DNA of 64,000 bases, taken from Polyangiales bacterium. Its GTDB lineage: Bacteria; Myxococcota_A; Polyangia; Polyangiales; Ga0077539. The position numbers and the translations under genes were made by a program. Positions 5,217-30,392 of the stretch are shown here, in pieces (the first letter of the stretch is position 1; each line of letters opens with the position of its first letter). Below the pieces are notes generated by a model. It was not told the origin of the DNA, did not search any database, and saw only the letters and a program-made list of their open reading frames with translations. The DNA lies in the NCBI GenBank assembly GCA_044229975.1, contig JBGARZ010000013.1, positions 64,001 to 128,000 on the forward strand, written 5' to 3'.

Positions 5217-5317
5217 CGCTCTTCCCCGTGCAGCACGGCCAAAGTCTGGACGCGTCACCCTCGCGTGTGAAGCTCGAAGCGACCGCCCGACCAGAGCGGG
5301 TATCTTCGCGCGCGACG

Positions 5318-6283
5318 ATGACGCGACCGCCAACCACCCGATCACCAACCGCTCCGAGCACCACGAGGCGCTGGCAGCTCCTCGCGATCTGCGTCGGCCT
5401 CTTCTCGTCGTCGTGTGACACCGCCACCCCTTTGCCCGACGCGTCCGCCTTGCTCGATGCATCACGCGATGCGCCGTCGGTCGATGCCCCGAGGCCGCCC
5501 TGCGCTCCGCGCGACAACGTGCTGCTCTGCGGCGCTCCGTTGCTCATCGCACACCGCGGCGGCGGCGCCCTGCGGCCCGAGGAGACCCTCGCGGCGTTCG
5601 CAAACGCCGCCGCGCTCCACGCCGACGTGCTTGAGCTCGACGTGCACTCGACCGCCGACGGCGAGGTCGTGTGCATGCACGACGACACGGTCGACCGCAC
5701 CACCAACGGCACCGGCGCATTGCACGGGCTCACGCTCGCCCAGGTGCGCGCGCTCGACGCCGGCTATCGGTTCACGACCGACCGCGGAGCGACCTTTCCG
5801 TATCGCGGGATGGGCATCACCGTTCCGACGCTGGCCGAGGTGCTCGCGGCACACCCGACCGCGTGGTTCTCGATCGAGATCAAACAGACCGAGCCCAACA
5901 TCGTCGACCGGGTGCTGACGATCGTCGACGCGAACCGCGCCGCAGGCCGCGTCGTGCTCGTGTCGTTCAACGATTCAGTGGTCCGCGAGATCCGGGCGCG
6001 ACGACCCGATGTCGTCACGGGGATGAGCCTCGCGGAGTTCGTCGCCTTCGCGGGGCTGCGGTCGTCGGTCGAAGCCACCTACGCGCCGCCGACGACCATT
6101 TCCCAGCTCCCGGCAGCCAGCGTCAACGCGGAGGTCGTCGCGCGCGCCGGGCGCCTCGGGGTGCGCCTCCACGCGTGGACGGTCAACGATCGCGAGACGA
6201 TGGTGAGGCTCCTCGACCTCGGCGTGCACGGCATCATGACCGACGACCCAGCGCTCCTCGCCGACGTGCTCGCGCACCGCTGA
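5318..6283 (+). CDS. Glycerophosphodiester phosphodiesterase, probable lipoprotein
   Basis: AHRGG, PEETL, ELDVH, MHD, IEIK, WTVND, GIMTDDP; N-terminal SSSC lipobox-like site. Confidence 0.9.
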   Translation: MTRPPTTRSPTAPSTTRRWQLLAICVGLFSSSCDTATPLPDASALLDASRDAPSVDAPRPPCAPRDNVLLCGAPLLIAHRGGGALRPEETLAAFANAAALHADVLELDVHSTADGEVVCMHDDTVDRTTNGTGALHGLTLAQVRALDAGYRFTTDRGATFPYRGMGITVPTLAEVLAAHPTAWFSIEIKQTEPNIVDRVLTIVDANRAAGRVVLVSFNDSVVREIRARRPDVVTGMSLAEFVAFAGLRSSVEATYAPPTTISQLPAASVNAEVVARAGRLGVRLHAWTVNDRETMVRLLDLGVHGIMTDDPALLADVLAHR

Positions 6284-14643: not shown

Positions 14644-14721
14644 ATGACCCAGCCACCCCGAGACGGCCTCCGACCTCCGACCTCCGCGCCTGACCTTCCG
14701 CGCCGATGGGAGGCGTCGTGA
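14644..14721 (+). CDS. Possible 25-aa leader peptide MTQPPRDGLRPPTSAPDLPRRWEAS
   Basis: GGAGAG 8 nt before the ATG; stop overlaps the next GTG. Confidence 0.3.
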   Translation: MTQPPRDGLRPPTSAPDLPRRWEAS

Positions 14722-15818
14722 GCACCTCCATCCGCTGGCTCGAAGGCCCCTCCATCGACGTCCCGTTCTACATGGGCGCGGCCCTCGCGGGCTGGGCGAT
14801 GCTGCTGCTCCACGTCGTCGTCGGCGTGCCCGCGTTTCACCTCTACTGGTTCTGGATCCTCTTCCTCGATGGTCCACACCTCTGGGCCACCATCTCGCGC
14901 ACCTACCTCGATCGCGAAGAGCGTCGCACCCGCGGCCCGCTCTTCATCGGCGCCTTCGCGTGGGCGCTGCTCCCCATCGCCACGCTCGCCTGGGGTCACG
15001 TCACCGGCAACCGCGTGCCCTTCGCGCTCTTCCTCGTCTTCGCGCAGCTCTGGGCGTACTGGCACGTCGTCCGGCAGCACTACGGCTTCCTCTCGCTCTA
15101 CCAGCGCAAGGGCGGTCAACCCGCCGGCGCGCAGAACCCCTTCGACGCCGCCGTCTTCTACGTCGTGATGCTCGCGCCCTTCGCGTCGTGGGCGCTGCGG
15201 CACCCGACCGCGCGCACCAGCCTCGGCCTCGGTCCCGCCCTCGGCACCGTCGAGCGCGGGCTCGTGTGGTCGCTCGGCGCCCTCATCGCCGCGGCCGTCG
15301 TCGCCTACGTCGTGAAGGAGCTGCGCCGCCGCAAGACCATCAACTTCGGCAAGAACCTCTTCCTCGCCTCCTGCGTCCCGCTGCACCTCGCCGTGCTGCT
15401 GCACCCCACGTGGTCGCTCCGCATCGAGCTCGTCGCCCTCGCCGTGATCGTGACCAGCTTCCACAACATCCAGTACAACGCGATCGTGTGGTGCTTCGGA
15501 CGACGCCGCTACGGACGCGACCCGCAGGGCGAGACCTACGGCCTGGCCGCGCGCCTCTTCCGCAACCCCATCGCGTGGTACGCGATCGGCGCCGCGCTCG
15601 CCGTCGTGATGCGATACGCGAGCTGGTCCTTCGACGGCCGCTACTGGCCGCTCACGCCGCACACCCACGCTCGCACCGGGGTCTTCTCGGCCGCCGAGTA
15701 CATCAACGCCCTGTGGTGGGTCGTCGCGATGCACCACTACTATCTCGACCAGAAGATCTGGCGCGTCAGCCGTGACGCCGGGGTGCGCTCCGGGCTCGGC
15801 CTCGCGCCCGCGCCATGA
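14718..15818 (+). CDS. Polytopic membrane protein with four His-containing motifs, probable metalloenzyme
   Basis: DGPHLWAT, WHVVRQHYG, FHNIQY, HHYYLDQKIW; many TM helices; GGAGG RBS. Confidence 0.7.
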   Translation: MSTSIRWLEGPSIDVPFYMGAALAGWAMLLLHVVVGVPAFHLYWFWILFLDGPHLWATISRTYLDREERRTRGPLFIGAFAWALLPIATLAWGHVTGNRVPFALFLVFAQLWAYWHVVRQHYGFLSLYQRKGGQPAGAQNPFDAAVFYVVMLAPFASWALRHPTARTSLGLGPALGTVERGLVWSLGALIAAAVVAYVVKELRRRKTINFGKNLFLASCVPLHLAVLLHPTWSLRIELVALAVIVTSFHNIQYNAIVWCFGRRRYGRDPQGETYGLAARLFRNPIAWYAIGAALAVVMRYASWSFDGRYWPLTPHTHARTGVFSAAEYINALWWVVAMHHYYLDQKIWRVSRDAGVRSGLGLAPAP

Positions 15819-15837: not shown

Positions 15838-17181
15838 GTGAAGCTGTCCGAGCACCTCAGCGGGTTTCGCGCCGCGAAGTCCCAGAGCCGCGCCCTCGAC
15901 CCGGCGCTCCCGCAGCTCGCGCGGTCGCCCGTCGCCAACCTCTGGACCTTCCGTCAAAACGCCCTCGATCTCCTGCGCGCCGCATCCGCGGTGGGCGACA
16001 CCGTGCGCGTCGACCTGCTCTACAAGCCGACGGTGTTCGTTCAGCACCCCGACGCGGTGCGCGAGATCTTCGAGCAGCCCGACGTGTGGAAGCGCGGCGA
16101 GGGCCTCGTGCCGCTCATCGGCCGCAACGTGCTCACCACCAACGGCGACGAGTGGCTCTTCAACCGCCAGATGGTGCAGCCGTCGTTTCACCCGCAGATG
16201 ACCGCGCGGGCGAGCACCGCGTTCGCGCGTGACGCAGCGGGAGCCATCGAGTCGTGGAAGGCCCACGCGCGCTCGGACGCGCCCTTCGACGTGGCCCGGC
16301 ACGCGGTGCGTCTCTTCGCGAAGTGGGCGACGCCGCAGTTCGGGTTTCAGCTCACCGACGACGAGGCCGACCGCTACCCCGACGCGCTCCTGCGCTTGCA
16401 GCGCTGGGGCTTTCGTCAGGTCGCGGGCGGCACCACGTCGTCGGCCCAGGCCACCGAAGACCTCGCGCTCCTCGACGGCATCATCACCCGCGCGCTCGCC
16501 ACCCCCGCCACGCCGGGCGAGCCGCCGACCTACCTCGAACGCTTCCGCCAGGACCACGACATCGACCGCGCCCGCGTCCGCGACAGCCTGATGCTCGCGC
16601 TCATCGCGTCGGCCGACAATCCGCCCAACGTGTTCGCGTACACGACGTGGCTGCTCGCGCGAAACCCCGCCCAGCAGGACGCAGCGCGCGCCGAGATCGC
16701 CTCTGTCCTCGGTAGCGAAGCGCCCACCGTCGACGCCCTCGACCGCCTGCCGCTGCTCGAACGCGTCGTGCAGGAGTCCATGCGCGTCCTGCCTGCCGTG
16801 TGGTTTCTCGCGCGCATCGCGCAGACCAACACGGTGCTCCGCGGCTACCGCATCCCCGAAGGAACCATGGCCTTCCCCTCCCCCTACTTCGTGCACCGCC
16901 ACGCCTCGACGTGGGACGCGCCGGAGGTGTTCCGCCCCGACCGCTTCCTCCCCGCCGAGGTCGAGAAGCGATCGCGCTACGCCTATCTCCCCTTTGGCTC
17001 AGGGCCCCGCATGTGCGTCGGCGCGCGGCTCTCGACGCTGGAGATCCGCATGCTGCTGGTGCTCTTCCTCCAGCGCTTTCGCGCGCTGCCGGTGAGCGAC
17101 GAGCCGCTGCCCCTCGAAGGCTTCTTCGCGCTGCGCTCTCGCCATGGCGTCCCCGTCCGACTCGCCACGGTAGACGCCTGA
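15838..17181 (+). CDS. Cytochrome P450
   Basis: ESMR (ExxR), FRPDRF, PFGSGPRMCVG; atypical I-helix ASADNPP. Confidence 0.95.
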   Translation: MKLSEHLSGFRAAKSQSRALDPALPQLARSPVANLWTFRQNALDLLRAASAVGDTVRVDLLYKPTVFVQHPDAVREIFEQPDVWKRGEGLVPLIGRNVLTTNGDEWLFNRQMVQPSFHPQMTARASTAFARDAAGAIESWKAHARSDAPFDVARHAVRLFAKWATPQFGFQLTDDEADRYPDALLRLQRWGFRQVAGGTTSSAQATEDLALLDGIITRALATPATPGEPPTYLERFRQDHDIDRARVRDSLMLALIASADNPPNVFAYTTWLLARNPAQQDAARAEIASVLGSEAPTVDALDRLPLLERVVQESMRVLPAVWFLARIAQTNTVLRGYRIPEGTMAFPSPYFVHRHASTWDAPEVFRPDRFLPAEVEKRSRYAYLPFGSGPRMCVGARLSTLEIRMLLVLFLQRFRALPVSDEPLPLEGFFALRSRHGVPVRLATVDA

Positions 17182-19178
17182 TGGACCCGGTCGCCTACGC
17201 CCTGATGCGCTCGGGGTTGTTCTCGTCGCTCGCCCCCGAAGCCTTCGGCGCGCTGCTGCGCGACGTCGAGCGTGTCGAGGTCGCTGGCGGTGACATCGTG
17301 GTGCGCGCGGGCGAGTCGGCCGACGCCTTCTACGTCATCGTCTCCGGCGCGGTGCACGTCTTCATCCACGCCGCCGACGGCGCCGAGGTCGCCCTCGCCG
17401 AGCTTCGCCCCGGCGACCACTTCGGCGAGCAGGCCCTTCTCGCCGGTCGGGTTCGCAACGCGAGCGTGCGCGGCCTCGCACCCCACTCGCTGCTCGCGCG
17501 CGTGGGCGTCGACCAGCTCGACGCGCTCTGCGCCAACGCGCCCGGGTTGCGCCACGAGCTCGAAGCCCTCGGCCAGCGGCAGGTGCAGGAGCAGCTCTCC
17601 CGCGGCACCGACCTCGTGCGCAGCCTCCTCGCGACGCTCGAAGCGCGCGCCGAGACGCTCGACCGCGAAAACGGCGACGTGCTCTTCCGACAGGGCGACC
17701 CCACCGGCGCGGCGTACGTGGTGCTCGCGGGGGCGGTGGAGGTCTTCGAGGAGCGCGAGGGCGCGTCGGTGCGCGTCGCGTCGGCGGGCCCGGGCGTGTG
17801 CGTCGGCGAGCGCGACGAGGTGACCCGGCGCCTGACGGCCGTGGTCGATGGGACGACGCGGTTGCTGAAGGTTCCGCGCGACGCGCTGGCGCTGGCGGCG
17901 GGTTCGGGCAAGGCGCGCGACCACCTCGCGACGCTCCAGAAGGTGTGGGAACTCCCCCAACGCGGCTTCGTCACCCACTACCTGGGCTCGGTCGACGGCG
18001 CGGCCTGTCTCACGCAGCTCTTCCACCTCGCCGACGGGCGGTCGTTCGTGTCGTCGCACGTGATCGGCTCCGAGGCGGTGCGGCTGCAGGCGTCCGCGGG
18101 CACGACGGCGCGCGTGCTCACCACGCCCGACGAGGCGATTCGCGTAGAGGTCGAGTCCGACGGGCGCATCGTCCGCATCGACGCGCAGGCCAGCCGCCCA
18201 TTGCTTGCGGCGGCCTTCGCGCGGGCCATCGAGGGGCGCCCGCTGTTGCCTGCCGAGGAGGCCACGCTGACGCGCACCGGGGCGCTCGCCGCGGACGACG
18301 AGGGCATCGCGTGCGCGTGCATGCGGGTGACGCGAGCGAGGGTGCGGCTGGCCCTCGCGGAGGGCGTCGCCGACCTCGAAGCGCTCAGTCAGCGAACCGG
18401 CTGCGGGATGTCCTGCGGGTCGTGCATCCCGGGGCTGCTGGAGCTGCTCGGCAAGGCGAGCTTCCTGCCCGTCGTCGTCGCACGAAGGGTGGTGCTTGCA
18501 CCGGGCGTGGTGCGGGTCTTCCTGTCGGGTCGAAGCGGCGAGGCGCTGCCCGTGTCGCGACCCGGTCAGCACGTGGTGCTGCGCGCGACGATCAACGGCC
18601 AGGTGGTCGACCGCCCGTACACGCTGTCGGGCGCGCCGGGTGCGCCGTGGGAGGTGACGGTGAAGCGCGAGCCCACCGGGCGCTTCTCGGTGTGGCTGTG
18701 CGACGTGGCCCAGCCCGGCACCGCCCTCGAAGCCTCCGCCCCGCGCGGAACCTACGTCTGGGACGAAGGCCCCGCCCCGGTCGTCTGTTTGACGAGCGGC
18801 ATCGGCGTGACACCCGCGCTCTGCTTCGCGCGCACCGTGATCCGCCGAGGGTTGCCACACCGCGTGCTGATCGACTGGTCGACGCGCCACGAGGCCGACG
18901 CCGCGGTGCTCGGCGAGCTCTCGGAAGCCGCGTGCGCAAACCTCACCATCCGCCCTCGCTACACGTCGCGCGCCGGGCGCATCACGCGCGCCGACGTGCA
19001 CGCGCTGGCGCGGCGCTTTCCGACGGCGGCGTTCTTCCTGTGCGGATCGGAGGGCTACATGACCGCGGTCTCGGAGGCGCTCGCGGCGGCCGGGGTGCCC
19101 GCAGCGCGCGTTCACGTCGAGCACTTCGACGCGGCGGGTGTGGCCGCTGCCGTGGCCGCGCCCGAGGGGGTCGCTTGA
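17181..19178 (+). CDS. Fusion: two cNMP-binding domains + BFD-like [2Fe-2S] + FAD/NAD(P)-binding FNR-type reductase
   Basis: FGEQALL..RNASV; LFRQGD..AYVVLAGAVEV; CAC...CGMSCGSC; RPYTLS, GRFS, SGIGVTP, LCGS, EHF. Confidence 0.88.
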   Translation: MDPVAYALMRSGLFSSLAPEAFGALLRDVERVEVAGGDIVVRAGESADAFYVIVSGAVHVFIHAADGAEVALAELRPGDHFGEQALLAGRVRNASVRGLAPHSLLARVGVDQLDALCANAPGLRHELEALGQRQVQEQLSRGTDLVRSLLATLEARAETLDRENGDVLFRQGDPTGAAYVVLAGAVEVFEEREGASVRVASAGPGVCVGERDEVTRRLTAVVDGTTRLLKVPRDALALAAGSGKARDHLATLQKVWELPQRGFVTHYLGSVDGAACLTQLFHLADGRSFVSSHVIGSEAVRLQASAGTTARVLTTPDEAIRVEVESDGRIVRIDAQASRPLLAAAFARAIEGRPLLPAEEATLTRTGALAADDEGIACACMRVTRARVRLALAEGVADLEALSQRTGCGMSCGSCIPGLLELLGKASFLPVVVARRVVLAPGVVRVFLSGRSGEALPVSRPGQHVVLRATINGQVVDRPYTLSGAPGAPWEVTVKREPTGRFSVWLCDVAQPGTALEASAPRGTYVWDEGPAPVVCLTSGIGVTPALCFARTVIRRGLPHRVLIDWSTRHEADAAVLGELSEAACANLTIRPRYTSRAGRITRADVHALARRFPTAAFFLCGSEGYMTAVSEALAAAGVPAARVHVEHFDAAGVAAAVAAPEGVA

Positions 19179-19897
19179 TTCCGTCATCGCCGCGTCCGCT
19201 CGTGGTGGCGCATCGCGGCGGGCGGTACGCCGACATCGCGGGGGAGCAGACGCTCGCTCACATGGAGCGGGCGATCGCGCTGGGCGCGGACTTCGTCGAG
19301 GTGGACGTGCGGGCGACGTCCGACGACGAGCTCGTGTGCGTGCACGACCCGACGATCGCGGGCGTGACCGTGAGCGCGGTGCCGTACGCCGAGCTGGCAA
19401 GGGCGTGCGAGGCTGCGGGGGTCGTGACGCCGCCGCGGCTCGGTGAGCTGTTGACGTTGTGTCGTGGGCGGGTGCGCGTCGACGTGGAGCTGAAGGTCGC
19501 GGGCACGGAGGCGGGCGTGCTCGCCGTGGCGAAGCGCGCGGGGCCGCTCGATGGGGTGGTGTTCAAGTGCTTTCAGGACGCCGTGGTGCGCGAGCTGAAG
19601 CGGCTCGAACCGTCGTGCGTGGCGGGGCTGCTGCTGGGCGTGCAGCGACCGAAGCGCGGCGCGTGGACGCGGTTGGGTGAGATCTTCCCCGAGTGGCGGC
19701 TGCGGGCGTGCCGCGCGGACTTCGTGTGCCCCAACCATCGGCTGCTACGGGCTGGCTTCGCCTGGCGGATGCGCTTGCAGGGCTATCCCGTGCTGGTGTG
19801 GACGGTGAACGATCGGGCGCAGCTCACGGCACTGGGCGCGGTGGTCGACGGGCTCATCACCGACGAGGTCGAGGTGTGCCTGGCGGGTCGGCGTTGA
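19175..19897 (+). CDS. Glycerophosphodiester phosphodiesterase family protein (cytoplasmic)
   Basis: AHRGG, EVDVR, VHD, VELK, WTVND, GLITD; TTG overlaps the previous stop. Confidence 0.88.
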   Translation: MIPSSPRPLVVAHRGGRYADIAGEQTLAHMERAIALGADFVEVDVRATSDDELVCVHDPTIAGVTVSAVPYAELARACEAAGVVTPPRLGELLTLCRGRVRVDVELKVAGTEAGVLAVAKRAGPLDGVVFKCFQDAVVRELKRLEPSCVAGLLLGVQRPKRGAWTRLGEIFPEWRLRACRADFVCPNHRLLRAGFAWRMRLQGYPVLVWTVNDRAQLTALGAVVDGLITDEVEVCLAGRR

Positions 19898-26332: not shown

Positions 26333-27523
26333 TCACTCCTGGCCGTCGATGGCCTCCGCAAACTCCACCAGGAAGAACGCGCACTCCAGCCAGCCGTCGT
26401 CGCCTTCCTTCAAGCTCACCGTGACCTGACCTTCGTCGAGCGTCCCCTCGGCGCTCTCGGCCTCGCCGAGAAACACGGCCGTGGCCGCGCCGTTCTTCCC
26501 CTTGAGGACGAAGGGCAGCTCCTTCTTGATGGCGTTGAAGAGGTCGTCGTCACCCGGCGCACACGAGAACAGGTCACCGATCTCGATCTTGCTGCGCGCG
26601 TCGGGCGCGTCGCCGAGCCCCTCGGCCACGAAGGCCGTGATCAGCTCCAGCGCCGCGAAGTAGTTGGTGTCCGACGACTCGATCCACTCCTGGTCGACCT
26701 TGAGCACCACACCCACCATGCCGCGCGTCGGCTCGATGAGCAGCTCCAGCTTCGCCGTGCGGGCGATGCGCGCGAAGCCGAAGTACCGCTTGGCGATGCG
26801 CCCGACGGGCTTGCCCGTGCGATCGAGCTCCAGCGAAAACCTCCGGCCAAACGGCGTGGCGTCGAGCTCTGGCGTCTTCCATCCGGCCACGCCCGTGCGG
26901 TCGCCCTTCACGAAGCCCACCGGCGCGCTGAAGAGCAATTGCCCCAGGTCGAACACCGCCTTCTGCGTCGCCACGCCGACGTGCAGCCGCCGACCGCCCT
27001 CCTCGTTGCGCACCACGACGGTGGCGCCCTTCTTCGCGAAGGTCGCCGACGCCTCCATGCGCCGCCCGAGAAACACCTCCGTCGCCCCGCCCGCCCCGTC
27101 GCGCGGCACCCACGACAGGGCTTCGAGCACCGCCGCGAAGGTGCGCGTCTGGTCATAGGACACCGCCAGGATGTTGCCGAGGGACTTGCGGTCGTCGGCC
27201 GTCGTCTCGCCCGCCGCGTCGGCGAGGAAGCGCGCGTACGCCGCCATCGCGCCGGCCGCGAGCGTGCGGTCTTGCAGGGCGCGACGGTCGATCCAGAGGC
27301 TCACCACCTCGCTGTGATCGTCCTCGTCGAAGAGGGCTTCGAGCTCCGCGGCGTCGCCCAGGATCTGCGAGCGCCACGCGACCCGCTTCATGCCGCGCAG
27401 CCGAGGGTCGGCCGCGTCGTCACCGCCCGTCACGCGAACGAGGGGGTAGGTCTTGGCGAAGGGCGAGGCTTCGATCTCCGAGGCGGTGCGATCGAGCAGG
27501 AGTCCGCGGGCGTTGGGTCGCAT
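26333..27523 (-). CDS. Hypothetical protein
   Basis: 396-aa ORF with protein-like composition; no motif recognised. Confidence 0.65.
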   Translation of the reverse strand: MRPNARGLLLDRTASEIEASPFAKTYPLVRVTGGDDAADPRLRGMKRVAWRSQILGDAAELEALFDEDDHSEVVSLWIDRRALQDRTLAAGAMAAYARFLADAAGETTADDRKSLGNILAVSYDQTRTFAAVLEALSWVPRDGAGGATEVFLGRRMEASATFAKKGATVVVRNEEGGRRLHVGVATQKAVFDLGQLLFSAPVGFVKGDRTGVAGWKTPELDATPFGRRFSLELDRTGKPVGRIAKRYFGFARIARTAKLELLIEPTRGMVGVVLKVDQEWIESSDTNYFAALELITAFVAEGLGDAPDARSKIEIGDLFSCAPGDDDLFNAIKKELPFVLKGKNGAATAVFLGEAESAEGTLDEGQVTVSLKEGDDGWLECAFFLVEFAEAIDGQE

Positions 27524-27635
27524 AGGGCGCGCGGAGGGTCATCCAGAGCGCGGCCCACCGTCAACGGGCTCGGCGGGTCCATTGGAGAGGGGACCGGCGA
27601 CCGCGAGGGCACCGACCTCCGCACGCAGCCCGCCG

Positions 27636-28943
27636 CTACCTCTGAACAATCGCCGCGAACGACCGCGTCCGCAGCGCGTCCATGGACACGCTCAGCGCCT
27701 GCATCACCTCGTCCTCGGTCGCGGCCCCGCAGTCCACCGCGCGCAGCACGTCGCCCAGCAACCCCTGCCCCGTCGCCGCGTCGTCGAACACCGCCCCCGC
27801 CCTCACCGCGTGCGCCGCTTGATCAATGAACGCCCTCAGCCGCCGCGCCGTCGCCGCAAACCCCGCCCGTGCGTGCGCGATCACCAGCGCGTGCCGCCAC
27901 ATCACCTGCCCCGGGTGCAGGTCCCACCCTTGGTGCACGCCCATCATCGCCGCGTGCCGCCAGTGCTTCGTCATCACCCCGAGCGCGCCCAGCACCGTCG
28001 CCCGGTTCTCCGCGCGCTGTGCATCCGTCAGCTCTGCCCCGCGGTGAACCTCCACGGGCATCACGTTGGTCGCCCCGTCCACCACGCGCACGCCGGTGCC
28101 CGCGAGCGACACCGTCATCAGCGAGCGCGCCAGGTCGCAGTACGGGTGCAGCAACGTCGCCTGCGACGCGCCCACTCCGAGCGACGCCGTGAGATCCCAC
28201 GCGCCCAGGTGCACCGCCGCGCACCGCCCCTCGGCCGCCTGCACCAGGCCGGGCAGCGCCACCGTTCCGTCGTCGCCGATGAGCGCGCGCGGGGTCTCCA
28301 CCATCAACTCGACCCCTACCGACCCGACGGGCCAGCCCAGCGCTCGCTCCAGTCGCGTGAGAACGTCCGCCAACGCCGCCACCTCCGACCGCCGCGACAC
28401 CTTCGGCAGCGTCACCACGAAGCCCGGCACCGGCCCGCCCGCCCTGGCCAGCGTGGTCAGAAACCCGTCCAGCGTCCGCACGGCGCGCCCCGCCGTCTCG
28501 CCCGCGAGGGGCTTCACGCGGATGCCCACCACGCGCGGGAGGGTGTGGTCGTCGCGGCTGCGGGCCATCGCGGTCGCGGCCTCGACGACGAAGCGGTCTT
28601 CCTCGGCGTCGGGGCGCGGGCCGAAGCCGTCCTCGAAGTCGACGCGGTAGTCCTCCACGGGCTCGCGGTGCAGCTTGTCGACGAGCCCCCGGTAGATGCG
28701 GTCGAGGGTGGTGTCGTCAGGCGGCTCGTCGAAGCCGAAGGGCAGCGCCCGCAGGTCGGCGAGCGAACCCACGAGCGTGTCGAGCAGCGCCGTCGCGTGC
28801 CGTCCCACCTTCGCGACGACGTCGTGGGTGTAACGGTGGGCGCCGCCGTAGACCGTGTGGACGGGGTGCCAGTGCGCCCGGTCGTCGATCGGGGATGGCA
28901 CTGCGAGCGCCGGAGCATCCGAGGGGTCGAGGGAGGTCTCCAC
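27636..28943 (-). CDS. HpcH/HpaI aldolase / citrate lyase-like protein (DUF6986-type)
   Basis: PVHTVYGGAH, PVEDYRVDFEDGFG, ELMVETP, DGATNVMP, QGWDLHP. Confidence 0.85.
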   Translation of the reverse strand: METSLDPSDAPALAVPSPIDDRAHWHPVHTVYGGAHRYTHDVVAKVGRHATALLDTLVGSLADLRALPFGFDEPPDDTTLDRIYRGLVDKLHREPVEDYRVDFEDGFGPRPDAEEDRFVVEAATAMARSRDDHTLPRVVGIRVKPLAGETAGRAVRTLDGFLTTLARAGGPVPGFVVTLPKVSRRSEVAALADVLTRLERALGWPVGSVGVELMVETPRALIGDDGTVALPGLVQAAEGRCAAVHLGAWDLTASLGVGASQATLLHPYCDLARSLMTVSLAGTGVRVVDGATNVMPVEVHRGAELTDAQRAENRATVLGALGVMTKHWRHAAMMGVHQGWDLHPGQVMWRHALVIAHARAGFAATARRLRAFIDQAAHAVRAGAVFDDAATGQGLLGDVLRAVDCGAATEDEVMQALSVSMDALRTRSFAAIVQR

Positions 28944-29069
28944 GGGTGCAATGGTACGGCACCGAACGACCGCGTACAGTCGGCGAAATCCACGGGGCGC
29001 AGCGACGGCGTAGGCGGACGGCGCGCACCCGAAGCACCGGTTGCCAGCGCGCACGAGGCTCCCATCACC

Positions 29070-30392
29070 ATGAACGACACCACCCTCCCCCCGGGCGACC
29101 GCGGCCTCCCACTGCTCGGCGAGACCCTGGCCTTCCTCAAGGACCAGTTTCACTTCGTCGACGAGCGGCGCGCGCGCTTCGGGAAGGTGTTTCGCAGCAG
29201 CATCCTCTTCAAGGACACGGCGCTGCTCGTGGGCGCGGAGGGAGCGCGCATCTTCAACGACGAAGCGAAGGTGCAGCGCGCCGGCGGCATGGCCCCGCAC
29301 ATCGCCGACTTCTTCGGCGGCACGAGCCTCCCCCTCCTCGATGGCCCCGCCCACCTGCGGCGCAAGCAGCAGGTGATGGGAGCGTTCAGCCGCGAGGCGC
29401 TCACGCAGTACATGCCCGTGATGGAGTCGACGGTGGAGCGCTACCTCGCGCGCTGGTCGTCCGCGGGCGACGCGCCCATCACCGAGGGGCTCAAGAACCT
29501 CGCGCTGGAGGTCATCGCGCGCACCATGGTGGGCTCCGACGCAGGGCCTTCCTTCGACGAGAACGTCGCCGACTTCAAGGTGATGGTGAAGGCGTTTACG
29601 GCCATCCCGATCCCGCTGCCCGGGACGGCCTTTGCGAAGGCGAAGTCCGCCCAGGCCCGCATCTTCGATCGCTACCGCGCGGTGCTCGCCGACCGCACCG
29701 CGAAGCCCACCGACGACGGGCTGTCGCGCATGCTGGCGAAGCCCGCCGAGGACGGCTCGCGCATCGACGGCGAAGACGCCCTCAAAGAACTCCACCACTT
29801 CAACCTCGCGGGCTACATCACCTTCGCGCACATGGCCCGCGGCCTCGTCGCCCTCGCGCAGGACGAGACCGTTCGTACGAAGCTCCGCGCCGAGATCGAC
29901 CGGCACCTCGGGGAGAAGCCCGTCACCGTCGAGGCGCTCCACCGCATGCCCTACCTGGAAAGCGTCGCCAAGGAGATGAAGCGCAGCGCGCCCTTCGTGG
30001 CCGTGAGCTTCGGCAAGGCGAAGAGCGACTTCACCATGGAGGGGAAGACCGTCCCCGCGGGGTGGATGGTGATGCTCTGCAACTACGCGAGCGGCAACGA
30101 GGCCGACCTCTTCGCCGACCCGTCGCGCTTCGACCCCGAGCGCTTCGCCGAGGGCCGCGCCGAAGACCTCAAGCACCCGACCGGCTTCTTCCCGCAGGGC
30201 GTGGGCGACCCCCTCAAGGGCCACAAGTGCGCGGGCGTCGACTTCTCCACGCTGCTGATGAAGACGTTCATGGTGCGACTGGCGCGGGACTACGAGGTGA
30301 CGCTCCCCCCGCAGGACCTGTCGTACCAATGGGAGAAGATCCCGCCGGAGTACGCGAGCGGCCTGCGGGCCGTGCTCAAGGCGCGGGCGTAG
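29070..30392 (+). CDS. Cytochrome P450 with extended heme loop
   Basis: LPPG..GLPLLGETL, EMKR, FDPERF, FPQGVGDPLKGHKCAG. Confidence 0.92.
   Translation: MNDTTLPPGDRGLPLLGETLAFLKDQFHFVDERRARFGKVFRSSILFKDTALLVGAEGARIFNDEAKVQRAGGMAPHIADFFGGTSLPLLDGPAHLRRKQQVMGAFSREALTQYMPVMESTVERYLARWSSAGDAPITEGLKNLALEVIARTMVGSDAGPSFDENVADFKVMVKAFTAIPIPLPGTAFAKAKSAQARIFDRYRAVLADRTAKPTDDGLSRMLAKPAEDGSRIDGEDALKELHHFNLAGYITFAHMARGLVALAQDETVRTKLRAEIDRHLGEKPVTVEALHRMPYLESVAKEMKRSAPFVAVSFGKAKSDFTMEGKTVPAGWMVMLCNYASGNEADLFADPSRFDPERFAEGRAEDLKHPTGFFPQGVGDPLKGHKCAGVDFSTLLMKTFMVRLARDYEVTLPPQDLSYQWEKIPPEYASGLRAVLKARA

Follow-up and report, generated by a model that had tools for sequence, protein, structure and literature searches.

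The question raised by this locus is whether a bacterial cytochrome P450 can draw its electrons from a single protein that is itself switched by a second messenger. The locus lies in a 64,000-nucleotide stretch of DNA (the window; positions 64,001 to 128,000 of contig JBGARZ010000013.1, assembly GCA_044229975.1) from a member of the Polyangiales, where a P450 gene is directly followed by a reductase gene. An original prediction, made from the sequence alone, had described the reductase as tandem cyclic nucleotide-binding (CNB) domains joined to a BFD [2Fe-2S] domain and a ferredoxin-NADP reductase (FNR) module, and had proposed a one-component, ligand-regulated electron donor. The protein is genuine and represents an uncharacterised form of an established type of reductase, with a redox core known from the bacterial nitric oxide synthases (NOS) scNOS and SiliNOS. 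On a reading that we hold slightly more probable than not, electrons would pass from NAD(P)H via FAD and the BFD [2Fe-2S] cluster to the upstream P450 and its heme, the flow being switched on by a 3',5'-cyclic nucleotide at the first CNB domain. To our knowledge, no P450 redox partner gated by a second messenger has been described. None turned up in the accessible literature that was searched, which excluded most subscription papers and the primary scNOS paper, and the same search found no description of the architecture seen in the window, of a stand-alone use as P450 reductase, of CNB or EF-hand sensors on the module, or of its range of partners.

The reductase frame is uninterrupted and specifies a protein of 665 amino acids. 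Pfam matches, motifs and structure comparison all bore out the predicted combination of tandem CNB domains, BFD and FNR in one chain. Two stretches matched cNMP_binding (E 3e-32), while Fer2_BFD (PF04324, residues 378-423, E 2.6e-9) and FAD_binding_6 (PF00970, residues 461-526, E 7.4e-6) scored above their cut-offs; the same scan gave no match to NAD_binding_1 or to PF00111, and no pyridine nucleotide-disulfide oxidoreductase domain. Every motif quoted in the prediction was located: FGEQALLAGRVRNASV at residues 81-96 and GERDEVTRRLTA at 209-220, the cysteine pattern C378xC380...C412xxC415, and a complete FNR set comprising RPYTLS (478-483), SGIGVTP (539-545), CGSEGYM (621-627) and EHF (647-649). 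The four-cysteine [2Fe-2S] domain thus precedes the flavin domain. In an AlphaFold model of the full-length protein, built from a 30-row alignment (mean pLDDT 84, pTM 0.54), residues 427-652 best matched the FAD/NAD module of flavohemoglobin (Z 26.8, root-mean-square deviation 2.1 over 222 residues). In a separate model, described below, the BFD domain matched the Pseudomonas aeruginosa Bfd structure (Z 9.1, root-mean-square deviation 1.4 over 51 residues). Position 595 carries Thr or Ser in 116 of 129 relatives (defined below), and this is presumably where NADPH-preferring FNRs have Ser and NADH-preferring ones Asp, a hint for NADPH.

A fifth folded domain, absent from the original account, links the second CNB domain to the BFD domain. 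Together with the latter it was modelled separately (residues 250-428, pLDDT 91). Foldseek returned nothing for this model at E<=0.001; a wider structure search gave middling matches of the linker (Z 5.7-7.0) to BphA4, toluene dioxygenase reductase, the CYP199A2 ferredoxin reductase and putidaredoxin reductase. The corresponding part (300-450) of a fusion relative, P0041, which is 41% identical over 678 residues, matched NirB 316-466 (E 1.6e-11), and the relative P0001 matched NirB 413-466 (E 9e-8). Because of these structure and sequence matches, the linker and BFD domains look as if they had been borrowed together from a NirB-like protein. A longer reductase starting at the upstream GTG at 16800 was rejected, as it would overlap the P450 gene and relatives begin at the position of the ATG at 17181. 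An artefact or chance fusion was likewise rejected, since the same collinear architecture occurs in more than 100 distant clusters; a homology search with the reductase gave 40 proteins at E<=0.001, of which 38 were at E<=2.4e-66.

The first CNB domain (site A) has the sequence hallmarks of a canonical CNB domain. In the accessible part of PMC2246266, the canonical phosphate-binding cassette is described as having Gly-Glu, a phosphate-binding Arg and a co-conserved glycine between beta2 and beta3, with the Arg and this Gly marking cassettes that bind cAMP. The site A cassette (17421-17468), predicted to be intact, is so: it is of canonical length, has G82, E83, R92 and A94 (Gly-Glu and Arg-x-Ala) as well as the beta2-beta3 glycine G44, and aligns without gaps to that of PKA. 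Its closest sequence matches are proteins that bind cAMP and cGMP. The second cassette (site B, 17805-17840) was rightly called shortened. It retains G209, E210 and R216, plus G172, but is three residues short, with five rather than eight residues between Glu and Arg, and where Ala normally follows R-x it has Leu218. Site B has probably been weakened or silenced in the clade of the window protein.

Conservation was examined among the 150 best matches obtained when 1.84 billion representatives (50% identity) were searched with a profile. After removal of 13 that did not span the module and eight with another number or arrangement of CNB domains, 129 relatives remained, with 23-63% identity to the reductase (median 29%). 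G82 was present in all 129, E83 in 127 and R92 in 125, so that R92 is kept nearly as well as the four cluster cysteines (129/129), while other arginines of the CNB region were found in at most 68. R216 of site B was kept in 119, and at least one of R92 and R216 in 128. Among 110 relatives of less than 90% identity (one N-terminally cut row dropped), the counts were 110, 110 and 109 for G82, E83 and R92. A Gln that is specific to the family follows the Gly-Glu of site A in 108 of the 129, and Asn follows its Arg in 72. The host genome has eight matches to class III cyclases. Judged from its sequence, site A probably binds a cyclic nucleotide.

Further insight into the N-terminal region came from relatives in which it differs. 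Seven NOS fusions without a CNB match were examined, and all seven had EF-hand loops on the same core, with Pfam EF-hand_7 above cut-off in each of the three that were scanned. These are full-length NO synthases with canonical EF-hand loops N-terminal of a linker-BFD-FNR core that is 27-32% identical to the window protein, and they are candidates for calcium-activated bacterial NOS with a built-in sensor. They include L046:7071-10448, L047, L053, L107, L127, L128 and L129, as well as P0043 and P0152, and some are named Flavobacteriaceae. In another set (L005, L035, L036, L054, L059, L065 and L067), the BFD-FNR core has no sensor match at all, meaning that the core does not need a sensor, which is then an accessory. 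As EF-hands replace the CNB pair in some NOS fusions and some relatives are sensor-less, the N-terminus looks like a swappable regulator. The conservation of site A and the exchange of the CNB pair for EF-hands both lend indirect support to a coupling of nucleotide binding to electron flow, to which, arguing by analogy, we would give even chances.

The upstream P450 is likely to be the acceptor of the electrons. Its stop codon overlaps the start of the reductase gene by one base at 17181 (TGATG), and in three related loci (L001, L002 and L003) a P450 that is 52-59% identical to it lies 0-3 bases before the reductase, so that all four known members of this P450 subfamily are coupled to the module. 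Besides the window, nine stand-alone loci were compared; four have an adjacent P450 (the same three and L037) and one (L041) an adjacent desaturase. The P450 has a heme loop FGSGPRMCVG with Cys C393, and the ExxR residues E313 and R316 are invariant. In its I-helix (ASADNPPN), Asn replaces the conserved Thr, so that the usual acid-alcohol pair is absent; D260-N261 align to the E-T of 7wzl. Predicted as a complex with residues 255-655 of the reductase, the P450 scored 0.60, compared with 0.00 for the best of three controls, and the runs shared at least 98% of contacts with a partner pLDDT of at least 78. This support is weak, given that scores of 0.60 or less that passed came from 18 of 157 solved complexes and from both of the two passing cases among 215 mismatched pairs. 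The idea of a one-component donor for the P450 therefore gains support from gene coupling in the window and three related loci, from the P450 fusions described below and, weakly, from the complex prediction.

By the precedent of the Sorangium NOS, the protein very probably binds the cofactors expected of it and passes electrons from NAD(P)H to FAD, to the [2Fe-2S] cluster and to heme. In the mechanism we propose, FAD would be reduced by NAD(P)H, the BFD cluster by FAD, and the P450 heme by the cluster. Binding of a nucleotide at site A would, through the CNB hinge and C-helix, shift the linker domain that carries the BFD domain, and this movement would allow the cluster to travel back and forth from flavin to heme. 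That the effect would be activation rather than inhibition is a guess, made by analogy with the NO synthases controlled by Ca2+.

The module is not confined to P450s. It was complete, from CNB to FNR, in 137 of the best 150 representatives, 79 of them without an extension of at least 80 residues; two of these apparently stand-alone rows fell inside clades of P450 fusions, so that some of the 79 may be cut-off fusions. Where the best 150 carried C-terminal extensions, these were an unnamed hydrophobic domain of 160-185 residues (28), a P450 (12), a NOS oxygenase (6), a multiheme cytochrome-like domain (5) or a desaturase-like domain (2), and in single cases a nitrite/sulfite reductase (P0145), a P450 of a second family and two domains of unknown kind. 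When the core of one NOS fusion was used as query, 69 proteins were recovered, of which 29 had a NOS domain and 24 a P450 domain. Among the members that carry names are NOS from cultured species of Polyangium and P450 fusions from Orrella, and the names given automatically in databases already spell out the domains ('ferredoxin-NADP reductase/CRP-like cAMP-binding protein/cytochrome P450'). A quick, unrooted tree of 108 modules, which carried long-branch warnings, required seven changes of label for NOS fusions and five for P450 fusions, suggesting that partner exchange happened repeatedly. The window protein fell within a stand-alone clade of 22 rows (SH-aLRT 99), which is exactly the set with the short site B cassette. 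Distribution was patchy: of 61 related genomes, two had a match at E<=1e-40, one of these matches being an EF-hand NOS fusion, and when 401 genomes of the phylum were searched, 12 had a match at E<=1e-60. In a plasmid search, P0001 was unmatched and NOS fusions were matched through their oxygenase part only.

Since relatives fuse the module to P450s, NOS and desaturases, it is likely to represent a widespread power supply for oxygen-using enzymes, one that a signal would switch on. The original prediction did not recognise it as the reductase of Sorangium-type bacterial NOS, serving many partners other than P450s. A broader picture, which we hold a little short of even, is of one core with a cyclic-nucleotide or calcium sensor that was repeatedly attached to P450s, NOS, desaturases, nitrite/sulfite reductase and multiheme cytochromes, so that the locus studied here would be a P450 system gated by a cyclic nucleotide, the Polyangium-type NOS would be activated in the same way, and other NOS by Ca2+ through EF-hands.

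Several relatives have arrangements of their own. The commonest fused class, with the unnamed hydrophobic domain (L004, L034, L044, L051 and L055), has genes for a multiheme cytochrome c and a Tll0287-like protein directly downstream, and may possibly form a transmembrane electron conduit under the same sensor. In L071:7119-10412 and L130:4576-7107, CNB-CNB-linker-BFD is joined to a P450-like domain, without FNR, and the heme-ligand loop has no Cys. In L018:3007-5736, L075 and P0315, the module continues at its C-terminus into a domain without a name, which is about 470 residues long and contains the His-rich motif HHTVLH; the first two of these proteins have no FNR domain. Among further fusions (P0145, P0326, P0233, P0238, P0324 and P0143) are those to nitrite/sulfite reductase, fatty-acid desaturase and sulfotransferase plus P450, along with cases that have an FAD-dependent oxidoreductase at the N-terminus or a domain of 550 residues that has no name.

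The locus itself consists of four genes on the plus strand, in the order membrane protein, P450, reductase and phosphodiesterase (Table 1); scans for promoters and terminators gave no hits. A P450 start at 15772 was replaced by the GTG at 15838. A GDPD-family gene also follows the reductase in two of the three related P450-reductase loci (L001 and L002), making three of four with the window. The His-rich putative membrane protein reached no Pfam or NCBIfam family above cut-off and resembled only large unnamed Atlas clusters. As it was not found in related loci (no match in L001-L077), its gene is probably outside the conserved unit. Its His motifs are HLWAT, WHVVRQHY, HNIQY and HHYYLD, and it may be a non-heme metal enzyme. 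No more than about 10-12 kb from the locus, there are a second P450-like gene (the C-terminal part of 27453-30392) and a second GDPD-family gene (5228-6283). The host genome is 10.0 Mb, 71% GC and 93% complete, with the reductase gene in single copy, and the named close relatives of the reductase come from Myxococcales and deltaproteobacterial metagenome-assembled genomes. The L002 record is titled Enterobacteriaceae, yet is GC-rich with genes close to those of the window, so its label may be wrong.

Table 1. Features of the reductase locus, in positions of the window
Feature	Position	Strand	Basis and remarks
Reductase gene	17181..19178	+	CNB-A, CNB-B, linker domain, BFD [2Fe-2S], FNR-type FAD/NAD(P)H module; ATG start
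CNB-A core, residues 32-119	17274..17537	+	Pfam PF00027; aligned to PKA/PKG cassettes; conservation
CNB-B core	17670..17888	+	PF00027 match; spacing by class
Linker domain, residues 258-372	17952..18296	+	Similar to the C-terminal domain in ferredoxin reductases of glutathione-reductase type and to the corresponding part of NirB
BFD-like [2Fe-2S] domain; C378, C380, C412, C415	18306..18452	+	PF04324; Bfd fold match
FNR-type FAD/NAD(P)H module, residues 427-652	18459..19136	+	PF00970; motifs; structure matches
Cytochrome P450, 447 aa	15838..17181	+	PF00067 E 4e-56; GTG start, GGAG five bases upstream; likely electron acceptor
GDPD-family phosphodiesterase gene	19175..19897	+	PF03009 E 2e-22; overlaps reductase stop by 4 bases
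His-rich putative membrane protein	14706..15818	+	19 bases upstream of P450; family unnamed

A number of observations weigh against a P450 system gated by a cyclic nucleotide. The pTM of 0.54 means that the mutual placement of the reductase domains is not predicted by the full-length model. An intact cassette is the rule in this genome, not a rarity, as 19 of its 27 CNB matches fit a loose cassette pattern. The sensor-less relatives and the degraded site B of the window's clade also count here, and are what would be expected if the protein were a constitutive reductase of the P450, with a CNB pair that is structural (for dimerisation or docking) or that binds nucleotide without effect. CNB folds with no cAMP response are indeed known, for example in the family 2B encapsulins, but these, in the accessible text of PMC11550324, have no cassette Arg, whereas nearly all relatives of the reductase keep R92 or R216. 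The exchange for canonical EF-hands points in addition to a sensing role, and we regard constitutive action as unlikely. Still less probable is a regulatory pocket for a ligand other than cAMP or cGMP, whether a cyclic pyrimidine, a nucleoside or some other cyclic phosphate, perhaps turned over by the GDPD-family enzyme. The Gln and Asn of site A are unlike the consensus cassettes in the accessible Table 1 of PMC2246266, a phosphodiesterase gene follows in three of the four P450-coupled loci, and no cyclase gene recurs beside the module among related loci, a further point against gating by a cyclic nucleotide. Against such a ligand, the best matches of site A bind cAMP and cGMP, the genome carries class III cyclases, and the association with GDPD genes is confined to the window's clade.

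The choice of the P450 as acceptor can be questioned as well. Three stand-alone loci (L048, L124 and L125) have no adjacent partner, and in L040 a cut downstream frame is linked to P450s by BLAST and not by Pfam. Identity between the window P450 and the fused P450s is only 17-26%, which means that the fusions are no warrant for this particular pair, and that at least three P450 lineages are tied to the module. P0284 has a fused P450 from a second, unrelated family, and a P450 from a third family lies downstream in L037. The P450 might even need no reductase, acting as an isomerase or driven by peroxide, as the Asn of its I-helix could indicate (D-N-P-P is found in all four members of the subfamily), and the reductase, whose module serves many kinds of partner, would then work with the His-rich membrane protein or with enzymes encoded elsewhere. 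We give this about the same small probability as a different ligand, or marginally less. RufM, P450cin and OxyB also have Asn in place of the I-helix Thr, and all do oxidative chemistry according to the accessible part of PMC13439498. The reductase is, moreover, coupled to the P450 in four of four members, compared with one of four for the membrane gene, and a survey of 401 genomes found no further copy of this P450 subfamily without a reductase, a weak argument because its four hits were the model's own kind. A donor switched by a cyclic nucleotide and serving the P450 thus remains our preferred reading.

The physiological inputs that stimulate these full-length bacterial NOS are stated to be unknown in the accessible text of PMC4436077, and if the reading is correct, the sensor domains on the Polyangium-type NOS would answer this question. 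The N-terminal CNB and EF-hand domains make the proteins of cultured Polyangium directly and cheaply testable, and the window protein, as a small stand-alone member, would be the easiest to purify. If gating is real, oxygenase chemistry would be placed directly under second-messenger control, and P450 biocatalysis would gain from the module an electron donor in one chain that can be switched by a ligand.

The precise relationship to known systems can be described at several levels. The reductases of GcoB and CYP116B type have a ferredoxin that is not of the BFD type and are not known to carry sensor domains, and in the CYP116B and phthalate dioxygenase reductase type a C-terminal Fer2 ferredoxin comes after the flavin domain. 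The window protein resembles GcoB (PDB 5ogx) and the CYP116B reductase (PDB 6laa) in having an FNR flavin domain and a [2Fe-2S] cluster on a single polypeptide that serves a P450 (its FNR module matches them at Z 23.7 and 23.8), but its cluster domain is a BFD and lies before the flavin domain. With NirB it shares a linker followed by BFD, matching NirB 316-466 (by P0041) and 413-466 (by P0001), yet it has no N-terminal flavin domain as NirB does, its FNR module coming after the BFD and its CNB pair standing in front. In common with the Bact_Pyrredox family of Kannan et al., in which tandem CNB domains sit on a pyridine nucleotide-disulfide oxidoreductase, it joins a CNB pair that includes a canonical cassette to a flavoprotein reductase, but the flavin domain has the FNR fold, not that of the disulfide oxidoreductases, and the accessible Table 1 of PMC2246266 names no BFD or oxygenase partner.

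The closest correspondence is to scNOS (Sorangium cellulosum) and SiliNOS (Silicibacter TrichCH4B), which have an N-terminal 2Fe-2S/FAD/NAD(P)H reductase, a module of this kind feeding a heme-thiolate oxygenase, as it probably does at the window locus; their accounts in the accessible text of PMC4436077 and PMC3701330 mention neither CNB nor EF-hand domains. The scNOS sequence was not among the named matches, and NOS of cultured Polyangium, which belongs to the same family as Sorangium, carry the module of the window protein (36% identity over 686 residues to P0105). Unlike scNOS and SiliNOS, the window reductase ends at residue 665 and stands alone beside a P450, without a fused C-terminal NOS oxygenase, and tblastn with a NOS oxygenase found none in the host genome (93% complete). 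Control of electron delivery from reductase to heme by a second messenger has a precedent in mammalian NOS (through calmodulin) and cyanobacterial syNOS, where, according to the accessible part of PMC12922734, the messenger is Ca2+. Those Ca2+-regulated enzymes rely on a diflavin reductase and on a flavodoxin as the shuttle, whereas the module described here combines a BFD cluster with CNB or EF-hand domains in one chain.

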